64,000 nucleotides of DNA from Escherichia phage T4: the sequence record OL964735.1, one strand, 5' to 3'. Of the stretch, positions 13,515 to 63,987 are shown in pieces (within the stretch, counting starts at the first letter, position 1; the number at the start of each line of letters is the position of its first letter). Made by a program: the position numbers and the translations under genes. Below the pieces are notes generated by a model, which did no database searches, was not told the origin of the DNA, and saw nothing but the letters and a program-made list of their open reading frames with translations.

Positions 13515-13717
13515 TTTTCACACCACCAACTGCTTACTTCAAAATCGGGTTCGCCATGTTCCCAGAACCAGGGGCCGATAGGAATCCACTTACCTTCATC
13601 GGTGACGTCATATTCTTCGGATTTAGCTAACCAAATCATGTATTCATAGAGTTTATATTCCAGGTCGCCTTCTGTTCCATCGCCTAGAAAAATAATTTGT
13701 TCATTTAATTCTATCAT
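13511..13717 (-). CDS. hypothetical small acidic protein
   Basis: ORF track; overlapping stop/start with neighbours. Confidence 0.4.
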   Translation of the reverse strand: MIELNEQIIFLGDGTEGDLEYKLYEYMIWLAKSEEYDVTDEGKWIPIGPWFWEHGEPDFEVSSWWCEK

Positions 13718-25932: not shown

Positions 25933-26121
25933 TTAGTCCTTAGTTAAATTTTCTAAATATGTTTCTAAATCATTTTCAGCTTTATCGATAGATTTTACTA
26001 ATTCGTAATATGTTTCGGCATCTCCATATTCAGAAGATATTTCAAAAGACAAATCCTTTTCTAAACTAATAATTTCACCAACTAAAAATAATATTTCGTT
26101 CTTTTGTTCGCGAGTAATCAT
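25933..26121 (-). CDS. hypothetical small acidic protein (tk.1 position)
   Basis: ORF track. Confidence 0.4.
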   Translation of the reverse strand: MITREQKNEILFLVGEIISLEKDLSFEISSEYGDAETYYELVKSIDKAENDLETYLENLTKD

Positions 26122-26309
26122 AAGGAATTTATATAATCAATGAGTTCTTGTTCTTTATTATCGAATTCTTTAGAAAGTTCTTCGTACTCGTTTGCGCTAA
26201 AAGGACCGCATTCATTACAAACTTTTTCCAATTCACTATTTTTATCCATAACTTCGTGGATAAGAGAAAAGAGTGTGTCTTTTTGTTCTTTGCTTAAACT
26301 CATAACCAT
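26118..26309 (-). CDS. hypothetical small acidic protein (tk.2 position)
   Basis: ORF track. Confidence 0.4.
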   Translation of the reverse strand: MVMSLSKEQKDTLFSLIHEVMDKNSELEKVCNECGPFSANEYEELSKEFDNKEQELIDYINSL

Positions 26310-26527
26310 GTCACCTTTAAGCAGTATTCTTCTACATGCTGTTTACGACCTTTCTTATCAATAAAGGTATATTCAACGAATGTTCCAATGTAGTCTTTAT
26401 CTACATCATGTGGACTATTAATTGGACATTTAGTGCGACAAATGCGTTCCCATTGACGAATAATTACTGCCTTATTCTTTGGGTCATATGGATGTGGATA
26501 ATGTATATTCATAATAATGGTTCCCAA
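26300..26527 (-). CDS. hypothetical small protein (tk.3 position)
   Basis: ORF track. Confidence 0.4.
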   Translation of the reverse strand: MGTIIMNIHYPHPYDPKNKAVIIRQWERICRTKCPINSPHDVDKDYIGTFVEYTFIDKKGRKQHVEEYCLKVTWL

Positions 26528-26976
26528 TCAACAATCACAATTTCTAATTTAGAGGAATATGTATCTAAAATCCCCTCAATAATATCCCAGTTCCCTTTAC
26601 CTATGCCTGCACCAATCCTAGGCATATAGATTGTAGGTTTAATCAGTTTATTTTCACCAAACTCATTTAATTCTAACATACAATTCATTAAAGCGGAATA
26701 CTCAAAATTTGGCCCTGGTTGAAATTGAGTATAAAGATTGAAGCAGTAAGCTTTATGAGTCCTAAAGTATTTTTCATAGACTGAGTAAGAACCGAGTTTA
26801 GTTACATCACCCCATTCAGTCTGTAATTTATCAGCTTCCAAAATTTTAGGGAAAGCTTTGGTTAATTGACCCGCTACGCCTGAACCCATAGTATGAAAAC
26901 AATTACATCCATGTGCAATATTTTTACCTTCAGCGAAAAGGGCGACAATATCGCCCTTGATATATTTTACAATCAT
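26509..26976 (-). CDS. Macro-domain protein (predicted ADP-ribose binding/processing)
   Basis: 155 aa; KGDIV...NIAHGCNCFHTMGSGVAGQL and PRIGAGIGKG resemble the macro-domain N-terminal and glycine-rich phosphate-binding loops. Confidence 0.5.
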   Translation of the reverse strand: MIVKYIKGDIVALFAEGKNIAHGCNCFHTMGSGVAGQLTKAFPKILEADKLQTEWGDVTKLGSYSVYEKYFRTHKAYCFNLYTQFQPGPNFEYSALMNCMLELNEFGENKLIKPTIYMPRIGAGIGKGNWDIIEGILDTYSSKLEIVIVDWEPLL

Positions 26977-27320
26977 CTAGTACTCAATCCTCGATTATAA
27001 GAATCTACCAAACGGTCAACCATTGAATGACAAGCGGCTTTATCTTTCTCCTCCGCAACTGAACATTCTAAGGTATTCCACTTTTTAGCATATCGTTTTA
27101 ACAATGTATCGTTTTTGTATCTGCTTGATTTATCTCTTTCTCCGTCTTTATATGCATATATTAATTTCTGTGCAAATTCAGCTTGGCATGCCTTATTTTT
27201 CCCACAATAATCTGCCGCAGTGCGGTTTACATATTCTCTAATTTCAGTATATGATGTATCTGCTGACGCAGAAGCAGAAAATGAAATTAATCCTATACAT
27301 AAAACCAAAATTTTAGTCAT
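26973..27320 (-). CDS. vs: Secreted protein with cleavable signal peptide (T4 vs position)
   Basis: 115 aa; MTKILVLCIGLISFSASASA then mature part with 4 Cys; named by position only. Confidence 0.4.
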   Translation of the reverse strand: MTKILVLCIGLISFSASASADTSYTEIREYVNRTAADYCGKNKACQAEFAQKLIYAYKDGERDKSSRYKNDTLLKRYAKKWNTLECSVAEEKDKAACHSMVDRLVDSYNRGLSTR

Positions 27321-27858
27321 TTACTATTTCCAAAAGTTTATTATTTTTAAGGTAATTAGCCTTTTCTAGGACTTCAGAAGCATATTTAGAACCTGCTTTA
27401 ACATTCCATCCCGAATTATAAGAGGATATTGCTTTTCTTATATCGCCCTTATGTATATTTAACCAATAAGAAAGTTCAATGTACGCCCAGGAAGCTGAAT
27501 TGGATCGTTTATTCAACATTCTTTTTATTTCAGCATCGGTCATATTATAACCAAGTTCCTTAACTCTTGCTCGCATAGTAGGCAAATAATTTTGGAACAT
27601 TCCGTAGGCGTGATGCTTTGGTTTAGATTTTAAATTAACTCCGCCAGAGCTTTCTTGCCATAAAATGGCAGCCATTATATGACCTAATCCGCTCTTGTGG
27701 ATATTTTTGTGTGTTTTATATTTTCCATCCTTAGAAAATTGTTCCCCGAATTGATACGCGTAACGCATGTTATCGAGTTGGACATTACTGAAAGTATGCT
27801 CGGAGCTATGTGCCATCATTGAAATGGCCAATAGACCAGCGAGTAGTGCTTTTCTCAT
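27313..27858 (-). CDS. Periplasmic lytic transglycosylase-like protein (SLT domain)
   Basis: 181 aa; signal peptide MRKALLAGLLAISMMAHS; catalytic-region pattern ILWQESSGG...AYGMFQ. Confidence 0.5.
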   Translation of the reverse strand: MRKALLAGLLAISMMAHSSEHTFSNVQLDNMRYAYQFGEQFSKDGKYKTHKNIHKSGLGHIMAAILWQESSGGVNLKSKPKHHAYGMFQNYLPTMRARVKELGYNMTDAEIKRMLNKRSNSASWAYIELSYWLNIHKGDIRKAISSYNSGWNVKAGSKYASEVLEKANYLKNNKLLEIVND

Positions 27859-27865
27859 GCTTACC

Positions 27866-28327
27866 TCATTGAGTTTTAATTACTGCTTTAGAAGCCTTTC
27901 CTGGTAAACGACGACTGTTGATAATTGCCATCCTACATTGAAGTGACGGGTCTTTGAACTTCTCGTTAGGTTTACAAACTGTAAATCCAAGCCAAAGATT
28001 TCCATCTGTGATTTCTAAACGTCCAGGACGATATTCAACCCCATCAATAAAATCCTCGTCAATGTCAGGACGCGGAGGCATACTCAGGAATTCATTAACT
28101 TCTAAAACATGGTCTTTTATTTTATGGAATAATTCAAAAACGTATGTCTCATCAATCTCCCGTTGAATTGCGCGATCAAGAAGATGTTGAGAATATTTTA
28201 GATGAAACGATGAGACTCCTGCTGCTTTTGATGCCTCACGAATCTCATTGTTAATTTGACGAAACTCCGACTCAAAGTGACGACGAAGCTTATTTCGACG
28301 GATAAAAACTTCTGTATTGATAGTCAT
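27866..28327 (-). CDS. regB: RegB site-specific endoribonuclease
   Basis: 153 aa; sequence and position as T4 RegB; TATAAT/GTTTAC promoter at 28355-28384. Confidence 0.85.
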   Translation of the reverse strand: MTINTEVFIRRNKLRRHFESEFRQINNEIREASKAAGVSSFHLKYSQHLLDRAIQREIDETYVFELFHKIKDHVLEVNEFLSMPPRPDIDEDFIDGVEYRPGRLEITDGNLWLGFTVCKPNEKFKDPSLQCRMAIINSRRLPGKASKAVIKTQ

Positions 28328-28354
28328 GTTATTCTCCTCTTAACTGATAGAAAA

Positions 28355-28384
28355 ATTATACCACAGTCAAGAGGAAAAGTAAAC
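28355..28384 (-). promoter_or_regulatory. Early promoter for regB
   Basis: GTTTAC -35 and TGGTATAAT extended -10. Confidence 0.6.
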
Positions 28385-28386
28385 AG

Positions 28387-28707
28387 TTATTCTTTAAATC
28401 TAATCAATTTATTCATAGACTTTGAAACTTCGGCACGAACCTCATGTAGATTTTTGAGCTGTTCAAGACGCTGCGTATAGTAAGCAATTTCATCTTCTTC
28501 GAGACAGTCCTGCGAATCTTCTTTAAGATAACGTGCATAGTCCTGGAAAGCGTTACGGACTACTTCCTGGAAGTCATCAAGACTTTGAATTTTCTTAGGA
28601 GCAACAGATACACGACGAGGGGCAGTATAATACTCATAACCAAACCCTGCGCTTAATTGAGCCATTAGTATTTTTCCTCTGGTTGGAACACTGCACGACA
28701 AGCCCAC
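28387..28707 (-). CDS. hypothetical protein (vs.3 position)
   Basis: ORF track; 106 aa. Confidence 0.4.
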
Positions 28708-28931
28708 ATACTGGCTTCTTTGAGTTTCGTTTTAGCAATAGTTAACTGATCGAGACTTTCAGCATAATTCTTCGCGAATTCACAGTCTTCGCAATTATCT
28801 AGTGCTTCCCAGAATTCATCATATAAAGCATCAAAGATAAGTCCTAAACGAACTTCAGCGTCTTTAATAGCATTTACTTTACCGATTTTCTCTTCAGTAT
28901 GTGGTTTATAACCCTTAATATCTTCAATCAT
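28665..28931 (-). CDS. Small acidic protein at vs.4 position; candidate Acb2-type cyclic-nucleotide sponge
   Basis: Track ORF 28665..28967 starts at TTG; ATG at 28931 gives 88 aa ([14 protein letters not shown]...); assigned by gene order and size, not sequence-verified. Confidence 0.4.
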
Positions 28932-29145
28932 ATTTGACTTCCTCACCAGTACATAAATCGTATTCAACTAAACGAATAGGTTCATGAATGCCATAGCCTT
29001 GAACAGAAATTTCTGTCGTAGGATAAATTCCATCAATATCACCCATATTCCACGCTTCATTAAATTGCTGTTCGCCTGAGTTACTAAACCACTCGGCGAA
29101 AGCATTTAGCACATCTTCAGAACCTTCAATAATTATCTTTGCCAT
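28924..29145 (-). CDS. hypothetical small acidic protein (vs.5 position)
   Basis: ORF track. Confidence 0.4.
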   Translation of the reverse strand: MAKIIIEGSEDVLNAFAEWFSNSGEQQFNEAWNMGDIDGIYPTTEISVQGYGIHEPIRLVEYDLCTGEEVKYD

Positions 29146-29507
29146 TACAAACTTTCAGTAAAGGTACGAGCGATAACGTCGCGCTGCTGTTCCGGAGTCA
29201 GAGAGTTAAAGCGAACTGCATAACCGGATACACGGATGGTCAGCTGCGGATATTTTTCCGGATGCTTAACTGCATCTTCCAGAGTTTCACGACGCAGAAC
29301 GTTAACGTTCAGGTGTTGACCACCTTCAATTTTAACTGTAGGTTGTGGCTCAATTTCAATTTCACGGGCATGCAAACCATAGAAAATTTCTGGGTCTACA
29401 AAAGAGTCCTCTTTAAAGGTTTTAGAGACAATAATTCGTGCTTGAATACCATCTTCAAAATAAATAGTACCTTTATGTGTGCCTTCAAGAATTTGATATG
29501 CTTTCAT
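29145..29507 (-). CDS. GrcA/YfiD-like glycyl-radical cofactor protein
   Basis: 120 aa; C-terminal [59 protein letters not shown] has the glycyl-radical fingerprint RVSGY; the 3' half of the gene (about 29150-29350) is GC-rich with enterobacterial codon usage. Confidence 0.75.
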
Positions 29508-29514
29508 ATAAACC

Positions 29515-29844
29515 TCAATTAGAAAATAAATTTATCCAAGATTGTTCTTTAATTAAAAATGGCTCAGAATCATATGCCATTAAACTTTGCGTAATTAATC
29601 CTTTAAAAGGTCCATCAATAAATTCCATGGTAAAATATGGAATTTTATTCATTAGCCGTGCATTAGGAGCAGTGCACAAAACTCTGCATCCTTTGAATAC
29701 GCCTTTTTGTAATTTGTATTGCTTGGGATAAAATTCGCTCAAAATGTTATTTTTTGCCAAAATTTCAAAATGATTCACCAATTTATTTTTAATAGTTTTT
29801 GGCGAAAAATAAAGATATTCGAAAAGCTGAGTGTCTGTCATCAT
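29515..29844 (-). CDS. hypothetical protein (vs.7 position)
   Basis: ORF track 29515..29895; internal ATG ([10 protein letters not shown]) preferred. Confidence 0.35.
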
Positions 29845-30491
29845 TGCATTCCGATTACGAAAAACTGTGGACGAGTAATACCACCAATGCAACATTTACT
29901 ATTACAGCAGTAGTGTACGGTGTCAATATGGACACTATAAATCTTATCCATATCAGGAGATTTGACAGGCTCATCAATTATATACAAAATTCGCGAAAGC
30001 TTTAAACCTCTGAACTTGCTTCCTTTATTACCAATAAAACTGCGTACAGAATCAGTAAATAAACGAAAACGTATATCATCATTAGAATAACGCGAAAATT
30101 CCTTTTTGATGTTATTTGCAGAAATTTTAGCATAAGCTGAAGTATTAGAAAGAACAATAACTGTTCCGCCATCATACAACCAATTAGCAGCAAAGTTAGT
30201 CACAGCAATTGATTTACCGGATTGACGTCCACCATCTAGTCGAAGTGTACAATACTGTTTAAGTAAGTCTTCAAATGGCGGGATATATTCGTTTTTACAA
30301 ATTTCTTCTACTCTAGCATCAGAATGGTGTGTAAAAGCATTCATCAGGGATAGATAAGGACCAGTTAAAAATGTTCTCATTTCTTCTCTATAAGTTTGGG
30401 CCATTCCGTGGCGCATGAATTGTCCATTTCTGTATTTACCCATTACCGCGCTTGGGCTCGACCTTATTACAGGTTGGCGGGAATCCCTCAT
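29841..30491 (-). CDS. P-loop NTPase-like protein (vs.8 position); start uncertain
   Basis: Walker A DGGRQSGKS and Walker B-like ILYIIDEP. Confidence 0.4.
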   Translation of the reverse strand: MRDSRQPVIRSSPSAVMGKYRNGQFMRHGMAQTYREEMRTFLTGPYLSLMNAFTHHSDARVEEICKNEYIPPFEDLLKQYCTLRLDGGRQSGKSIAVTNFAANWLYDGGTVIVLSNTSAYAKISANNIKKEFSRYSNDDIRFRLFTDSVRSFIGNKGSKFRGLKLSRILYIIDEPVKSPDMDKIYSVHIDTVHYCCNSKCCIGGITRPQFFVIGMQ

Positions 30492-30517
30492 ATAATCATG
30501 AGGTCCAGGTTGTTCCC

Positions 30518-30883
30518 TTATGCATAAATCGCCTTACCGTAGTATTTGTACCAAGTAGGACGTTGTGCAATTTTTTCATCTAAACGAGCTTGTGATATAG
30601 CAATAGAAGCTTCATGGGGAATATAATCACCACGGAATTCCTGAGGAATATCACTAATATCCTGGACTGTAGTATCCTTGATATTAAAACCACGTTTTAA
30701 ACATTCAGCTATAAGCTCAATTTGACGTTTACGTAAGAACTCGAGCTTATCGTAAAAGAATGTAACATGACCTGCGCCAAGGATAAAAGTAGGACTGATT
30801 TTAAAATCACGAACACGTTTACCGTTAGCAACATGCTTACGAACTGCACCAAAAACACGCGGCAATTCACGATATTCAGCCAT
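30518..30883 (-). CDS. denV: Endonuclease V (pyrimidine-dimer DNA glycosylase), ORF lacking the canonical N-terminal 17 codons
   Basis: 121 aa [40 protein letters not shown]... matches residues 18-138 of T4 EndoV; in-frame TAA six codons upstream of the ATG. Confidence 0.8.
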
Positions 30884-31197
30884 TAAGTGTTGGTCAGTTT
30901 ATCTTTAATTGCTTTAGCTGCTTCGATAGCCGCTTGCTGAAGGTCATCCATAGACATGCCGAACTTAGAAGCAAAGTTATCAATTTTCTTTTCGACGGCA
31001 TTCAAAGGCTTGGCCTGTTTACCTTCATTAGCGCCAGGAAGAGCGAGAATACGCTCTCTGTCAATATAAAGGCTTACAAGTTTCTTACGGTCTTTATCGG
31101 GCAAATCATGAAATGAATGGGCCTTTTTATTTACAGCGGCTTCTAATTTACCTGCGCCCACTCGCGCTTCGGCAATAAATTCTTGATATGTTTTCAT
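30883..31197 (-). CDS. ipII: Internal head protein II
   Basis: 104 aa; N-terminal capsid-targeting sequence [11 protein letters not shown] shared with ipIII; stop overlaps denV ATG (TAATG). Confidence 0.8.
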
Positions 31198-31249
31198 ATG
31201 TTTCCTTTAAATGTAAATATTTTTATTATTCTATCCTAGAATTGTGATA

Positions 31250-31278
31250 ATATATTCACAATTCTAGGAGTTGTAAAC
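31250..31278 (-). promoter_or_regulatory. Early promoter upstream of ipII
   Basis: GTTTAC -35 with AT-rich -10. Confidence 0.4.
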
Positions 31279-31312
31279 TGCTTTTATTTAAGCGTCCCAA
31301 GTATAAGCTTTA

Positions 31313-31894
31313 TTAAGAATTACCACGGGCTGCATTAGCAACGGCGTAAGCGTACTGAATATTAGCGTCTTTAAACTTACCTTTAGAGGTATCTATTTCT
31401 GCCTTAAAGCCGCCTTTAGTCATAACATCGGCAAATTCTTTACGGAAAGCCATTGCATCAAGACCTTTCCATGATGATTTATGCTTGGCAAATTCAAGAC
31501 CTGCGAAGTTGACAGCTTTAGCCAATTTATTATCAATGACCCATTTACCGGCTTTAGGCACAAACTTCGGGCCTTTCTGTTTAGAGAACAGTTTTAAATT
31601 CCAGCGGCGAAGGTCTGCATCAGCTTTAACAAATTCTGAGTCTAAGTTACTAGCAACAACATCTTCAATATGAGCAAATTTAAGTCCGTCAACTTCAATA
31701 TTTAAATCGGTACGCCAGCGAAGTCCTTCCCAAGCGAAGGCTTTAAAGTCGGAAGCCTTTGTAGCTAAGTACCGTTCAATAGGAGCTGTTTTAGGGTCAA
31801 AGCCGTTTCCTGATCGGTAGGTCCACTCATCTTTGTTAATGCCTTTGGCCTTTACTACAGAAGCTTCGGCAATAAATTCTTGATATGTTTTCAT
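31313..31894 (-). CDS. ipIII: Internal head protein III
   Basis: 193 aa; N-terminal [11 protein letters not shown] capsid-targeting sequence. Confidence 0.85.
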   Translation of the reverse strand: MKTYQEFIAEASVVKAKGINKDEWTYRSGNGFDPKTAPIERYLATKASDFKAFAWEGLRWRTDLNIEVDGLKFAHIEDVVASNLDSEFVKADADLRRWNLKLFSKQKGPKFVPKAGKWVIDNKLAKAVNFAGLEFAKHKSSWKGLDAMAFRKEFADVMTKGGFKAEIDTSKGKFKDANIQYAYAVANAARGNS

Positions 31895-31947
31895 ATGTTT
31901 CCTTTAAATTATTTTAATTAGTAATTGTCTATTCAAGTAATTGTGAA

Positions 31948-31978
31948 TATACTATCACAATTCCAAGAGAAAGTAAAC
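31948..31978 (-). promoter_or_regulatory. Early promoter upstream of ipIII
   Basis: GTTTAC-(17)-TGATAGTAT. Confidence 0.45.
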
Positions 31979-31982
31979 AGCT

Positions 31983-32951
<969 letters not shown>

Positions 32952-39430: not shown

Positions 39431-40127
<697 letters not shown>

Positions 40128-46560: not shown

Positions 46561-48543
46561 ATGGCAAATACCCCTGTAAATTATCAATTAACAAGAACAG
46601 CAAATGCTATTCCCGAGATATTCGTCGGGGGTACATTTGCTGAAATAAAACAAAACCTCATTGAATGGCTTAATGGCCAAAATGAATTTTTGGATTATGA
46701 TTTTGAAGGCTCAAGATTAAACGTTCTGTGTGACCTTTTAGCTTATAATACATTATACATTCAGCAGTTTGGTAATGCTGCTGTGTATGAAAGCTTTATG
46801 CGTACTGCTAACTTACGAAGTTCAGTTGTTCAAGCTGCACAAGATAACGGATATTTACCTACTTCAAAATCCGCTGCGCAGACCGAAATTATGTTAACAT
46901 GCACTGACGCATTGAATAGGAATTACATTACTATTCCTCGCGGAACTCGCTTTTTAGCATATGCAAAAGATACTTCTGTTAATCCATATAACTTCGTTTC
47001 TACCGAAGACGTTATTGCTATTCGTGATAAAAATAACCAATATTTTCCGCGTTTAAAATTGGCCCAGGGACGTATAGTAAGAACTGAAATCATTTATGAT
47101 AAATTAACACCTATTATCATTTATGATAAAAATATTGATAGAAACCAGGTTAAATTATACGTTGATGGAGCGGAATGGATTAACTGGACGAGAAAGTCAA
47201 TGGTTCATGCTGGTTCAACATCAACGATTTACTATATGCGTGAAACTATTGATGGAAACACTGAATTCTATTTTGGTGAAGGTGAAATTTCTGTTAATGC
47301 TTCTGAAGGAGCTTTGACCGCTAATTATATCGGAGGTCTTAAACCTACTCAGAACTCTACGATTGTTATTGAGTACATTAGTACTAATGGTGCTGACGCG
47401 AACGGAGCAGTCGGATTTTCATACGCAGATACATTAACAAATATAACTGTCATCAATATTAATGAAAATCCAAACGATGATCCAGATTTTGTTGGGGCAG
47501 ATGGAGGCGGTGATCCAGAAGATATTGAGCGTATTCGCGAATTGGGTACTATTAAACGCGAAACCCAACAACGATGCGTAACTGCGACTGACTATGATAC
47601 ATTCGTTTCAGAGAGATTTGGTTCTATTATTCAAGCTGTTCAGACTTTCACTGATTCTACTAAACCTGGGTATGCATTTATTGCTGCTAAACCTAAATCA
47701 GGATTGTATTTAACTACCGTACAGCGTGAAGATATTAAAAATTATCTCAAAGACTATAATTTAGCTCCTATTACGCCATCAATTATTTCTCCTAATTATC
47801 TTTTTATTAAGACTAATTTAAAAGTCACATATGCTTTAAATAAACTGCAAGAATCCGAACAGTGGCTTGAAGGTCAAATAATTGATAAAATTGATCGCTA
47901 TTATACCGAAGATGTAGAAATTTTTAACTCGTCTTTCGCTAAATCTAAGATGTTGACATATGTAGATGATGCAGATCATTCTGTCATTGGTTCATCAGCG
48001 ACTATTCAAATGGTTCGTGAAGTACAAAACTTCTATAAAACGCCTGAAGCGGGTATTAAATACAATAATCAAATAAAAGATCGTTCTATGGAATCTAATA
48101 CGTTTTCATTTAATTCTGGACGAAAGGTTGTAAATCCTGATACTGGTTTAGAAGAAGATGTATTATATGACGTTCGTATAGTATCAACAGACCGAGATTC
48201 TAAAGGAATTGGTAAAGTTATTATTGGTCCATTTGCTTCTGGCGATGTTACAGAAAATGAAAACATTCAGCCGTATACAGGCAACGATTTTAACAAATTA
48301 GCAAATTCTGATGGACGCGACAAATACTATGTTATCGGTGAAATAAATTATCCAGCTGATGTGATTTATTGGAATATCGCTAAAATTAATTTAACATCTG
48401 AAAAATTTGAAGTTCAGACCATTGAATTATATTCTGACCCAACCGATGATGTTATCTTTACTCGCGATGGTTCACTGATTGTATTTGAAAATGACTTACG
48501 TCCACAATACTTAACTATCGATTTGGAGCCTATATCACAATGA
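46561..48543 (+). CDS. 6: Baseplate wedge protein gp6
   Basis: 660 aa; T4 gp6 length and order. Confidence 0.9.
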   Translation: MANTPVNYQLTRTANAIPEIFVGGTFAEIKQNLIEWLNGQNEFLDYDFEGSRLNVLCDLLAYNTLYIQQFGNAAVYESFMRTANLRSSVVQAAQDNGYLPTSKSAAQTEIMLTCTDALNRNYITIPRGTRFLAYAKDTSVNPYNFVSTEDVIAIRDKNNQYFPRLKLAQGRIVRTEIIYDKLTPIIIYDKNIDRNQVKLYVDGAEWINWTRKSMVHAGSTSTIYYMRETIDGNTEFYFGEGEISVNASEGALTANYIGGLKPTQNSTIVIEYISTNGADANGAVGFSYADTLTNITVININENPNDDPDFVGADGGGDPEDIERIRELGTIKRETQQRCVTATDYDTFVSERFGSIIQAVQTFTDSTKPGYAFIAAKPKSGLYLTTVQREDIKNYLKDYNLAPITPSIISPNYLFIKTNLKVTYALNKLQESEQWLEGQIIDKIDRYYTEDVEIFNSSFAKSKMLTYVDDADHSVIGSSATIQMVREVQNFYKTPEAGIKYNNQIKDRSMESNTFSFNSGRKVVNPDTGLEEDVLYDVRIVSTDRDSKGIGKVIIGPFASGDVTENENIQPYTGNDFNKLANSDGRDKYYVIGEINYPADVIYWNIAKINLTSEKFEVQTIELYSDPTDDVIFTRDGSLIVFENDLRPQYLTIDLEPISQ

Positions 48544-51500
48544 CAGTAAAAGCACCTTCAGTCACTAGTCTCAGAATTTCCAAGTTATCCGCAAATCAGG
48601 TGCAAGTACGCTGGGATGACGTTGGTGCTAATTTCTACAAAATAGTAGAAATCGCTGAGACAAAAACAAACTCGGGGGAAAATCTCCCGAGTAATCAATA
48701 TCGTTGGATTAATTTAGGATATACAGCAAATAATAGTTTCTTTTTTGATGATGCTGATCCATTAACAACATACATTATTAGAGTAGCCACAGCTGCGCAA
48801 GATTTTGAGCAGTCTGATTGGATTTATACCGAAGAGTTTGAAACTTTTGCTACAAATGCTTATACATTTCAAAACATGATTGAAATGCAATTAGCCAATA
48901 AATTCATTCAGGAAAAATTTACTCTTAATAATTCTGATTATGTTAATTTTAATAATGATACTATAATGGCTGCATTGATGAATGAATCATTCCAATTCAG
49001 CCCATCGTATGTTGATGTTTCATCAATAAGTAATTTTATTATTGGTGAAAATGAGTATCATGAAATACAAGGTTCTATTCAGCAAGTATGTAAGGATATT
49101 AACCGAGTTTATTTGATGGAATCAGAAGGAATTCTATATCTTTTTGAGCGCTATCAACCTGTAGTTAAAGTATCCAATGATAAAGGACAAACCTGGAAAG
49201 CTGTAAAGCTCTTCAATGACCGTGTAGGATATCCTTTATCTAAGACAGTATATTACCAATCTGCGAACACAACATACGTTCTAGGATACGACAAGATTTT
49301 CTATGGCCGCAAATCTACTGATGTTAGATGGTCAGCCGATGATGTCAGATTTAGTTCTCAGGATATAACATTTGCTAAACTTGGCGACCAATTACATCTA
49401 GGATTTGATGTAGAAATTTTTGCCACTTACGCGACTTTACCAGCGAATGTATACCGCATTGCAGAAGCTATTACTTGCACCGATGATTACATTTACGTTG
49501 TCGCCAGAGACAAAGTTAGATACATAAAAACGAGTAATGCACCTATAGATTCTGATCCATTATCTCCAACATATTCGGAAAGACTTTTTGAACCTGATAC
49601 CATGACTATAACCGGAAATCCTAAAGCAGTATGCTATAAAATGGATTCTATCTGTGATAAAGTTTTTGCTCTTATTATTGGTGAAGTTGAAACATTAAAT
49701 GCTAATCCTAGAACATCAAAAATAATTGATTCCGCTGATAAAGGAATATATGTTTTAAATCATGACGAAAAAACATGGAAAAGAGTTTTTGGTAATACCG
49801 AAGAAGAAAGAAGACGTATTCAACCCGGATATGCGAATATGTCAACTGACGGTAAATTAGTTTCTCTGTCTTCGAGTAATTTTAAATTTTTAAGTGATAA
49901 TGTTGTTAATGACCCTGAAACTGCAGCAAAATATCAGTTAATTGGCGCTGTTAAATATGAATTTCCTCGTGAATGGTTAGCTGATAAGCATTATCATATG
50001 ATGGCATTTATAGCGGATGAAACATCTGATTGGGAGACTTTTACTCCTCAACCAATGAAATACTACGCAGAACCATTCTTTAACTGGTCTAAAAAATCTA
50101 ACACACGTTGTTGGATAAACAACTCTGATAGAGCTGTGGTAGTTTATGCTGATTTAAAATACACTAAAGTTATAGAAAATATTCCGGAAACATCACCAGA
50201 TAGATTAGTTCATGAATACTGGGATGATGGTGATTGCACTATAGTAATGCCAAATGTCAAATTCACTGGATTTAAAAAATACGCATCAGGAATGCTTTTC
50301 TATAAAGCCTCCGGTGAAATAATTTCTTACTATGATTTTAACTATCGTGTGAGAGATACAGTAGAAATTATTTGGAAGCCAACTGAAGTATTTTTAAAAG
50401 CATTTTTACAAAACCAAGAGCATGAGACTCCTTGGTCACCAGAAGAAGAGCGTGGATTAGCTGACCCTGATTTAAGACCATTAATTGGCACAATGATGCC
50501 TGATTCTTATTTGTTACAGGATTCGAATTTTGAGGCATTTTGCGAAGCATATATTCAGTATCTTTCTGATGGATATGGAACTCAATACAATAATTTACGA
50601 AATTTAATTCGTAACCAATATCCACGAGAAGAGCACGCATGGGAATATTTGTGGTCAGAGATATATAAAAGAAACATTTATTTAAATGCTGATAAACGCG
50701 ATGCTGTTGCGAGATTCTTTGAATCACGTAGCTATGATTTTTATTCTACTAAAGGAATTGAAGCATCATACAAGTTTCTTTTTAAAGTTCTTTATAATGA
50801 AGAAGTTGAAATTGAAATTGAATCTGGGGCTGGTACTGAATATGATATAATCGTTCAATCTGATTCTTTGACTGAAGATTTAGTAGGACAAACGATTTAT
50901 ACGGCAACAGGAAGATGTAATGTTACTTATATAGAAAGAAGCTATTCTAATGGTAAATTGCAATGGACCGTAACTATTCATAATCTTTTGGGACGATTAA
51001 TTGCTGGTCAAGAAGTTAAAGCAGAAAGACTCCCTAGTTTTGAAGGCGAAATTATTCGTGGGGTTAAAGGAAAGGATTTGCTTCAAAACAATATAGACTA
51101 TATTAATAGAAGTAGATCATACTATGTAATGAAAATTAAATCCAATTTACCTTCTTCCCGCTGGAAATCTGACGTTATTCGTTTTGTTCATCCAGTAGGA
51201 TTTGGATTTATAGCAATTACCCTTTTAACAATGTTTATTAATGTTGGTTTAACTCTTAAACATACAGAGACTATAATTAATAAATACAAAAACTATAAAT
51301 GGGATTCTGGATTGCCTACTGAATATGCCGACAGAATAGCTAAATTAACTCCAACCGGTGAAATTGAGCATGATTCAGTAACAGGCGAAGCAATTTATGA
51401 GCCTGGCCCAATGGCTGGTGTAAAATATCCTCTTCCTGATGACTATAATGCTGAAAATAATAATTCAATATTTCAAGGTCAATTGCCGTCTGAACGACGT

Positions 51501-60846: not shown

Positions 60847-63987
<3,141 letters not shown>

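Follow-up and report, generated by a model that had tools for sequence, protein, structure and literature searches.

A minus-strand gene in a bacteriophage T4 genome stretch is vs.4, encoding the cyclic-dinucleotide sponge Acb2

A small minus-strand open reading frame (ORF) lies at positions 28665-28931 of the window analysed here, a 64,000-nucleotide stretch of Escherichia phage T4 DNA (sequence record OL964735.1). Going by gene order, the initial annotation placed this ORF in the vs.4 slot, noted that Vs.4 had been reported as an Acb2 homologue, and left the start of the gene in doubt between an ATG and a TTG upstream of it. Is the ORF indeed vs.4, at which codon does it begin, and is its product an Acb2-type sponge for cyclic dinucleotides? 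We identify the ORF as vs.4 of bacteriophage T4, which today bears the name acb2 (anti-CBASS 2). This identification confirms the initial observation, and we regard it as practically certain.

Position and start codon of vs.4

The ORF comprises 267 nt on the minus strand, from an ATG at 28931-28929 to a TAA at 28667-28665, i.e., 88 codons and a stop. These coordinates correspond exactly to the annotated vs.4 CDS of the T4 reference genome (NC_000866.4, 63078-63344) and of T4T (HM137666.1, 63066-63332). The whole window aligns to about positions 34213-98520 of NC_000866.4, and a megablast search of its region 27800-29600 against 50,697 phage records retrieved several T4 records at 100% identity, e.g., T4T HM137666.1, MT984581.1, and KJ477684.1, with the reference NC_000866.4 at 99.8% identity. 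Comparison of the window with NC_000866.4 and T4T found no sequence difference from T4 vs.4; the CDS is identical in all three, and the idea that differences between window and reference alter vs.4 was therefore rejected. The claimed gene order of regB, vs.3, vs.4 also stands: in NC_000866.4 the neighbours of vs.4 all lie on one strand, with regB and vs.3 downstream and vs.5, vs.6, vs.7, vs.8, and denV upstream, and the T4T annotation agrees with both the position of vs.4 and this order. The locus contains the following features:

28665..28931, minus strand: vs.4/acb2 CDS, 88 aa plus TAA (ORF and translation, T4 annotation, PDB 7UQ2, PF24729, PHROG 717)
28938..28944, minus strand: Shine-Dalgarno-like GAGGAAG, inside the 3' end of vs.5 (read from the sequence)
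28924..28931, minus strand: vs.5/vs.4 overlap of 8 nt, from the vs.4 ATG at 28931-28929 to the vs.5 TGA at 28926-28924 (ORF list)
28663..28667, minus strand: TAATG junction, in which the vs.4 stop (28667-28665) shares one base with the vs.3 start (28665-28663)

A mechanically compiled ORF list carries the vs.4 frame out to a TTG at 28967, which raises the possibility that the protein is made in a 100-aa form whose N-terminal extension alters its properties. We consider this very improbable. The 100-aa version (28665-28967) arises solely because the list carries each frame out to the earliest codon following a stop that could serve as a start. The TTG has no purine-rich Shine-Dalgarno sequence upstream (context ...CCTATTCGTTTAG), and the extension that it would add falls wholly within the vs.5 CDS. 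Upstream of the ATG, in contrast, stands GAGG (28944-28941) at a spacing of 9 nt, and the old T4 record X04567 has a ribosome_binding_site annotated beneath the GAGGAAG match. Every T4 annotation takes the ATG for vs.4, and the Vs.4 protein that was crystallised and functionally tested begins MIEDIK. The tyrosine of its IKGY motif (Y8) lies equally near the N-terminus in the Acb2 protein of Pseudomonas phage PaMx33, and the published residue numbers (Y8, H11, K23, R79, F82, L29, A66, A73, A77, D61, T68, and others) fit the ATG start only. The TTG-initiated ORF was accordingly rejected, and the doubt about the start is settled in favour of the ATG by annotation, ribosome binding site, and residue numbering: the true start of vs.4 is the ATG at 28931 (MIEDIKGY...).

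Both ends of the gene are tightly joined to their neighbours. The vs.5 gene of the window (28924-29145, minus strand) encodes 73 aa, as it does in T4T, where vs.5 is annotated at 63325-63546 and so runs past the vs.4 start. In NC_000866.4, vs.5 is annotated with 58 aa due to a 1-base difference (an extra G, window position 29095). It is the 73-aa form, the T4T type found in modern resequencing, rather than the 58-aa form, that produces the 8-nt overlap with the vs.4 start. At the other end, the TAATG junction reads TACTAATGGCTCAA in its context, and NC_000866.4 has the same arrangement, with vs.3 at 62800-63078 and vs.4 at 63078-63344. This packing of overlap and junction is compatible with translational coupling of vs.4 to vs.5 and vs.3.

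Transcription, neighbouring genes, and other differences from the T4 references

The vs.4 gene sits in a run of tightly packed or overlapping minus-strand genes from vs.8 to vs.3. A promoter scan found no promoter directly upstream of vs.4; the closest minus-strand promoter-like sites lie upstream in vs.8 (30006-29977 and 29926-29898) and downstream before regB (28383-28355). The total of promoter-like sites is not above that in shuffled sequence, and thus the scan by itself says nothing firm. Since no promoter-like site stands right upstream, transcription of vs.4 probably begins at more distant upstream promoters and yields a polycistronic message.

Could vs.5, vs.4, and vs.3 form a translationally coupled anti-defence cassette, with Vs.3, Vs.5, or both also acting against nucleotide-signalling immunity or modulating the Acb2 sponge? 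We think this unlikely. The one point in its favour is the gene packing, and such packing is common throughout the T4 early regions. Pfam searches with these two small proteins, Vs.3 and Vs.5, returned nothing above threshold; a match of Vs.3 to Tex_N (17.6 bits, with the cut-off at 32) was sub-threshold and was treated as chance.

Two other genes nearby are annotated with a domain or motif. The 120-aa product of vs.6 (29145-29507, minus strand) matches the glycine-radical domain PF01228 with its C-terminus (66.8 bits), which makes it a spare part of the GrcA/YfiD kind for glycyl-radical enzymes, with which the NC_000866.4 annotation agrees. Three genes downstream of regB, tk.4 (26509-26976, minus strand; 155 aa) is annotated with an A1pp (macro-domain) phosphatase motif.

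Outside vs.4, the window departs from the references in several places. In vs.8, at window position 30386, there is a 9-bp in-frame deletion relative to NC_000866.4 (reference 64798-64806); T4T and other modern T4 sequences share it, and it is therefore a peculiarity of the old reference rather than of the window. Three further segments that are present in NC_000866.4, T4T, and the T4 records listed in our searches are absent from the window:

13359|13360: exactly 100 bp missing inside 49.2 (reference 47572-47671)
about 13622-13625: 102 bp missing inside 49.3, with TTTA microhomology (reference 47938-48039)
30897|30898: exactly 100 bp missing (reference 65319-65418), including the stop codon of ipII, the intergenic region between ipII and denV, and the opening codons of denV

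As a result of the third gap, the ipII frame spans 104 aa, and that of denV is not open before M18 (121 aa). Aligned over the gap junctions, the T4 records listed break up into two or three segments, and they contain the additional bases. If the gaps were real deletions, the DNA would come from an unsequenced T4 derivative lacking functional 49.2 and 49.3 and full-length denV. However, the two gaps of exactly 100 bp, which lack microhomology, resemble artefacts of preparation more than deletions that arose naturally. A change of another kind was found in gene 7 (plus strand), where a perfect 7-bp hairpin (TTTCTAC-loop-GTAGAAA, 48632-48651) has its 6-nt loop (48639-48644) inverted relative to both T4 references, from TATTTT to AAAATA, turning Y34-F35 of gp7 into K34-I35. 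This inversion belongs to the quasi-palindrome, or template-switch, class of changes.

Family membership and predicted fold

Searched against all PDB chains with phmmer, the translated ORF matched chain A of 7UQ2, named 'Vs.4', with 88 of 88 residues identical (E=1.9e-57); the 7UQ2 entry contains 6 chains. The two are the same molecule, alike in gene position and start codon as well, and we found no difference in protein or CDS; the adjoining vs.5 is of the 73-aa T4T form. In Pfam, Vs.4 belongs to a single family, PF24729 (Acb2/Tad1 hairpin, Acb2_Tad1_hairpin), with a score of 71.4 bits (E=7.1e-20), far above the gathering cut-off of 27 bits, and the match covers the complete profile (1-58 of 58) and residues 7-83 of the 88. 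In PHROGs, the protein falls into phrog_717 (E=2.3e-32), and PHROG 717 is the family named for Vs.4 homologues by Jenson et al. (PMC10097602).

The next PDB hits were to 'p26' of Pseudomonas phage PaMx33 (8H2J, 8H2X, 8H39, 8IXZ, and related entries), the founding Acb2. This alignment, over residues 4-85, is weak by sequence alone (E ~0.03, ~24% identity in phmmer). The two proteins share a fold and are about equal in length (Huiting et al. 2023; Cao et al., PMC10312549), and the HMMER alignment holds their IKGY motifs in register and conserves the tyrosine and lysine contacts, with T4 Y8 opposite Y11 and K23 opposite K26 of PaMx33 Acb2. In the window protein, the ligand-contact residues Y8, H11, K23, R79, and F82 are all at their published positions, as are T12, L60, D61, T68, and S74, and the hexamer-interface residues L29, F33, A66, A73, and A77 are present too.

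The physical properties of the protein agree with this assignment. The initial annotation described an acidic helical protein, and Vs.4 (88 aa, 10.2 kDa) has a pI of 4.66, with 19 D+E against 12 K+R; a single-sequence AlphaFold2 model of the monomer (mean pLDDT 76.3) predicts two long helices, at residues 13-45 and 50-81, forming a hairpin. Foldseek comparison of this model with the PDB returned the 7UQ2 chains first (E ~1e-10), PaMx33 Acb2 (8H2X/8H2J) next with a probability of 0.99-1.00, and then generic helical hairpins, so the structural comparison is positive like the profile search. Superposition of the model on the crystal chains is moderate (TM 0.57, rmsd ~5 A), which is expected when a single-sequence monomer model is compared with one chain of an interlocked hexamer. 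The proposal that the vs.4 slot holds an Acb2 homologue is thus borne out by the full match to 7UQ2, by PF24729, and by the fold. The identity of the gene, its identity to the crystallised protein, its family membership, and the presence of all functional residues are established here.

Acb2 and Tad1 have this Pfam family, called 'Acb2/Tad1 hairpin domain', in common, and one might ask whether Vs.4 is instead a Tad1-type sponge for the Thoeris signal gcADPR rather than an Acb2-type cyclic-dinucleotide sponge. Tad1 is a larger, multi-domain protein. Vs.4 consists of the hairpin alone, and a match to residues 7-83 of only 88 aa leaves no space for a further domain. Moreover, the top matches among solved structures are Vs.4 and Acb2, with no Tad1 entry in either the phmmer search of the PDB or Foldseek, and crystallographic and ITC data place cGAMP in the pockets (PMC10097602). 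In the literature consulted, T4 Vs.4 is not reported to bind gcADPR. A Tad1-type function for Vs.4 is therefore exceedingly improbable. What Vs.4 does have in common with Tad1, which two publications describe as a Thoeris anti-defence sponge for gcADPR (PMC10680739, PMC12393519), is the helical hairpin domain (PF24729) and the sequestration, rather than degradation, of a signal.

The idea that a small ORF such as this arose by chance in AT-rich phage DNA, or has no function, has nothing but its small size in its favour. It can be dismissed outright, since vs.4 is conserved at 51-100% identity in more than 1,200 phage genomes, has a crystal structure and genetics, and is of a length (ATG-started ORFs of at least 88 aa) found 13 times in window positions 26000-32000 against 0.3 +/- 0.6 times in shuffles, i.e., about 40-fold more often.

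Cyclic-dinucleotide binding and its meaning for T4

For the Acb2-type sponge, the biochemistry has been published for the identical protein. The gene came to light through forward genetic screening of T4 on a type II CBASS (Jenson et al., Nature 2023, PMC10097602), and its product binds 3',3'-cGAMP with a Kd of ~30-31 nM (PMC10097602). The structure, at 2.0 A, is a hexamer with three cGAMP molecules, each ligand lying between two subunits, and the hexamer was found by crystallography and ultracentrifugation with a sequence identical to that of the window (PMC10097602). Stacking on the purine bases involves Y8 and F82, and polar contacts come from Y8, H11, K23, and R79; mutations in the binding site or at the hexamer interface (L29, A66, A73, A77) abolish both cGAMP binding and protection against CapV, which Vs.4 inhibits in vitro (PMC10097602). 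The name Acb2 comes from the parallel study of PaMx33, per a commentary (PMC10449767). Cao et al. (PMC10312549) reported a Kd of ~84 nM for T4-Acb2. The nucleotide binding expected of an Acb2 sponge is thus on record for this protein in two studies (PMC10097602, PMC10312549).

The comparison with PaMx33 Acb2 also bears on which ligands are bound. Both proteins form a hexamer with three cyclic-dinucleotide pockets. Their cyclic-dinucleotide ligands are the same, but T4-Acb2 binds neither cA3 nor cAAG (PMC10312549). The subgroup of Acb2 proteins that binds trinucleotides is defined by an arginine and a threonine in a second pocket (R67 and T74 in PaMx33) together with a kinked pocket helix. Vs.4 has D61 and T68 at these positions, which places it outside the subgroup, and the D61 in place of R67 along with an unkinked pocket helix accounts for the lack of cA3 and cAAG binding in T4 Acb2, whereas PaMx33 Acb2 binds them (PMC10312549). 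A D61R mutant of the T4 protein still did not bind cA3 in ITC (PMC10312549). From D61/T68 and the published ITC, T4 Vs.4 is a dinucleotide-only Acb2.

In the mechanism that follows from this published work, the helical-hairpin Vs.4 assembles as an interlocked homohexamer whose three dimer interfaces serve as pockets, each clamping one cyclic dinucleotide, with 3',3'-cGAMP as the prototype. Y8 and F82 stack on the bases, and Y8, H11, K23, and R79 provide hydrogen bonds and salt bridges. In this way Vs.4 sequesters, without degrading it, the second messenger of bacterial cGAS-like enzymes, such that CBASS effectors, e.g., the phospholipase CapV, stay inactive and T4 can replicate. The tests in the literature, namely cGAMP binding, hexamer formation, and the CBASS sensitivity of a T4 vs.4 deletion, all favour this mechanism. 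The same sponge activity exposes T4 to Panoptes, which fires once its decoy 2',3'-c-di-AMP is soaked up: 14 of 15 T4 Panoptes escapers were mutated in acb2/vs.4, and T4 Acb2, which binds the decoy, is both required and sufficient for the triggering of Panoptes (PMC12657218). The hexamer, the Kd values, the inhibition of CBASS, and the triggering of Panoptes are taken from the literature, and we regard the sponge explanation as nearly certain.

We would like to note that the window also encodes the other anti-CBASS protein of T4, Acb1 (gp57B), at 39431-39889 on the minus strand (PF23474, 202.7 bits; PDB 7T26 'Acb1', E=4e-62). The gene product is labelled 'RNA ligase' in NC_000866.4 and 'hypothetical protein' in T4T. 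Acb1 acts in the same phage on the same signal class as Vs.4, but it belongs to an unrelated family (PF23474; 7T26) and degrades cyclic nucleotides.

The reading of Vs.4 as Acb2 is supported, and it is already known and nothing new: for T4 vs.4/acb2, a crystal structure, measured Kd values, mutant data, and phage genetics have been available since 2023, and the dual role of the gene, as anti-CBASS sponge and as the trigger of Panoptes through its decoy, is likewise published. The locus is useful as a positive control, given that the assignment to Acb2 from gene order alone was correct and that the checks came out clearly positive. By tblastn, 1,235 of the 50,697 phage records encode a vs.4 homologue (51-100% identity), the majority of them from T4-like phages infecting Escherichia, Klebsiella, Shigella, Enterobacter, and Yersinia, and nearly all of these homologues are annotated 'hypothetical protein'. 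With most deposited T4-like genomes still carrying that label for vs.4, transfer of the Acb2 annotation to them would be useful.
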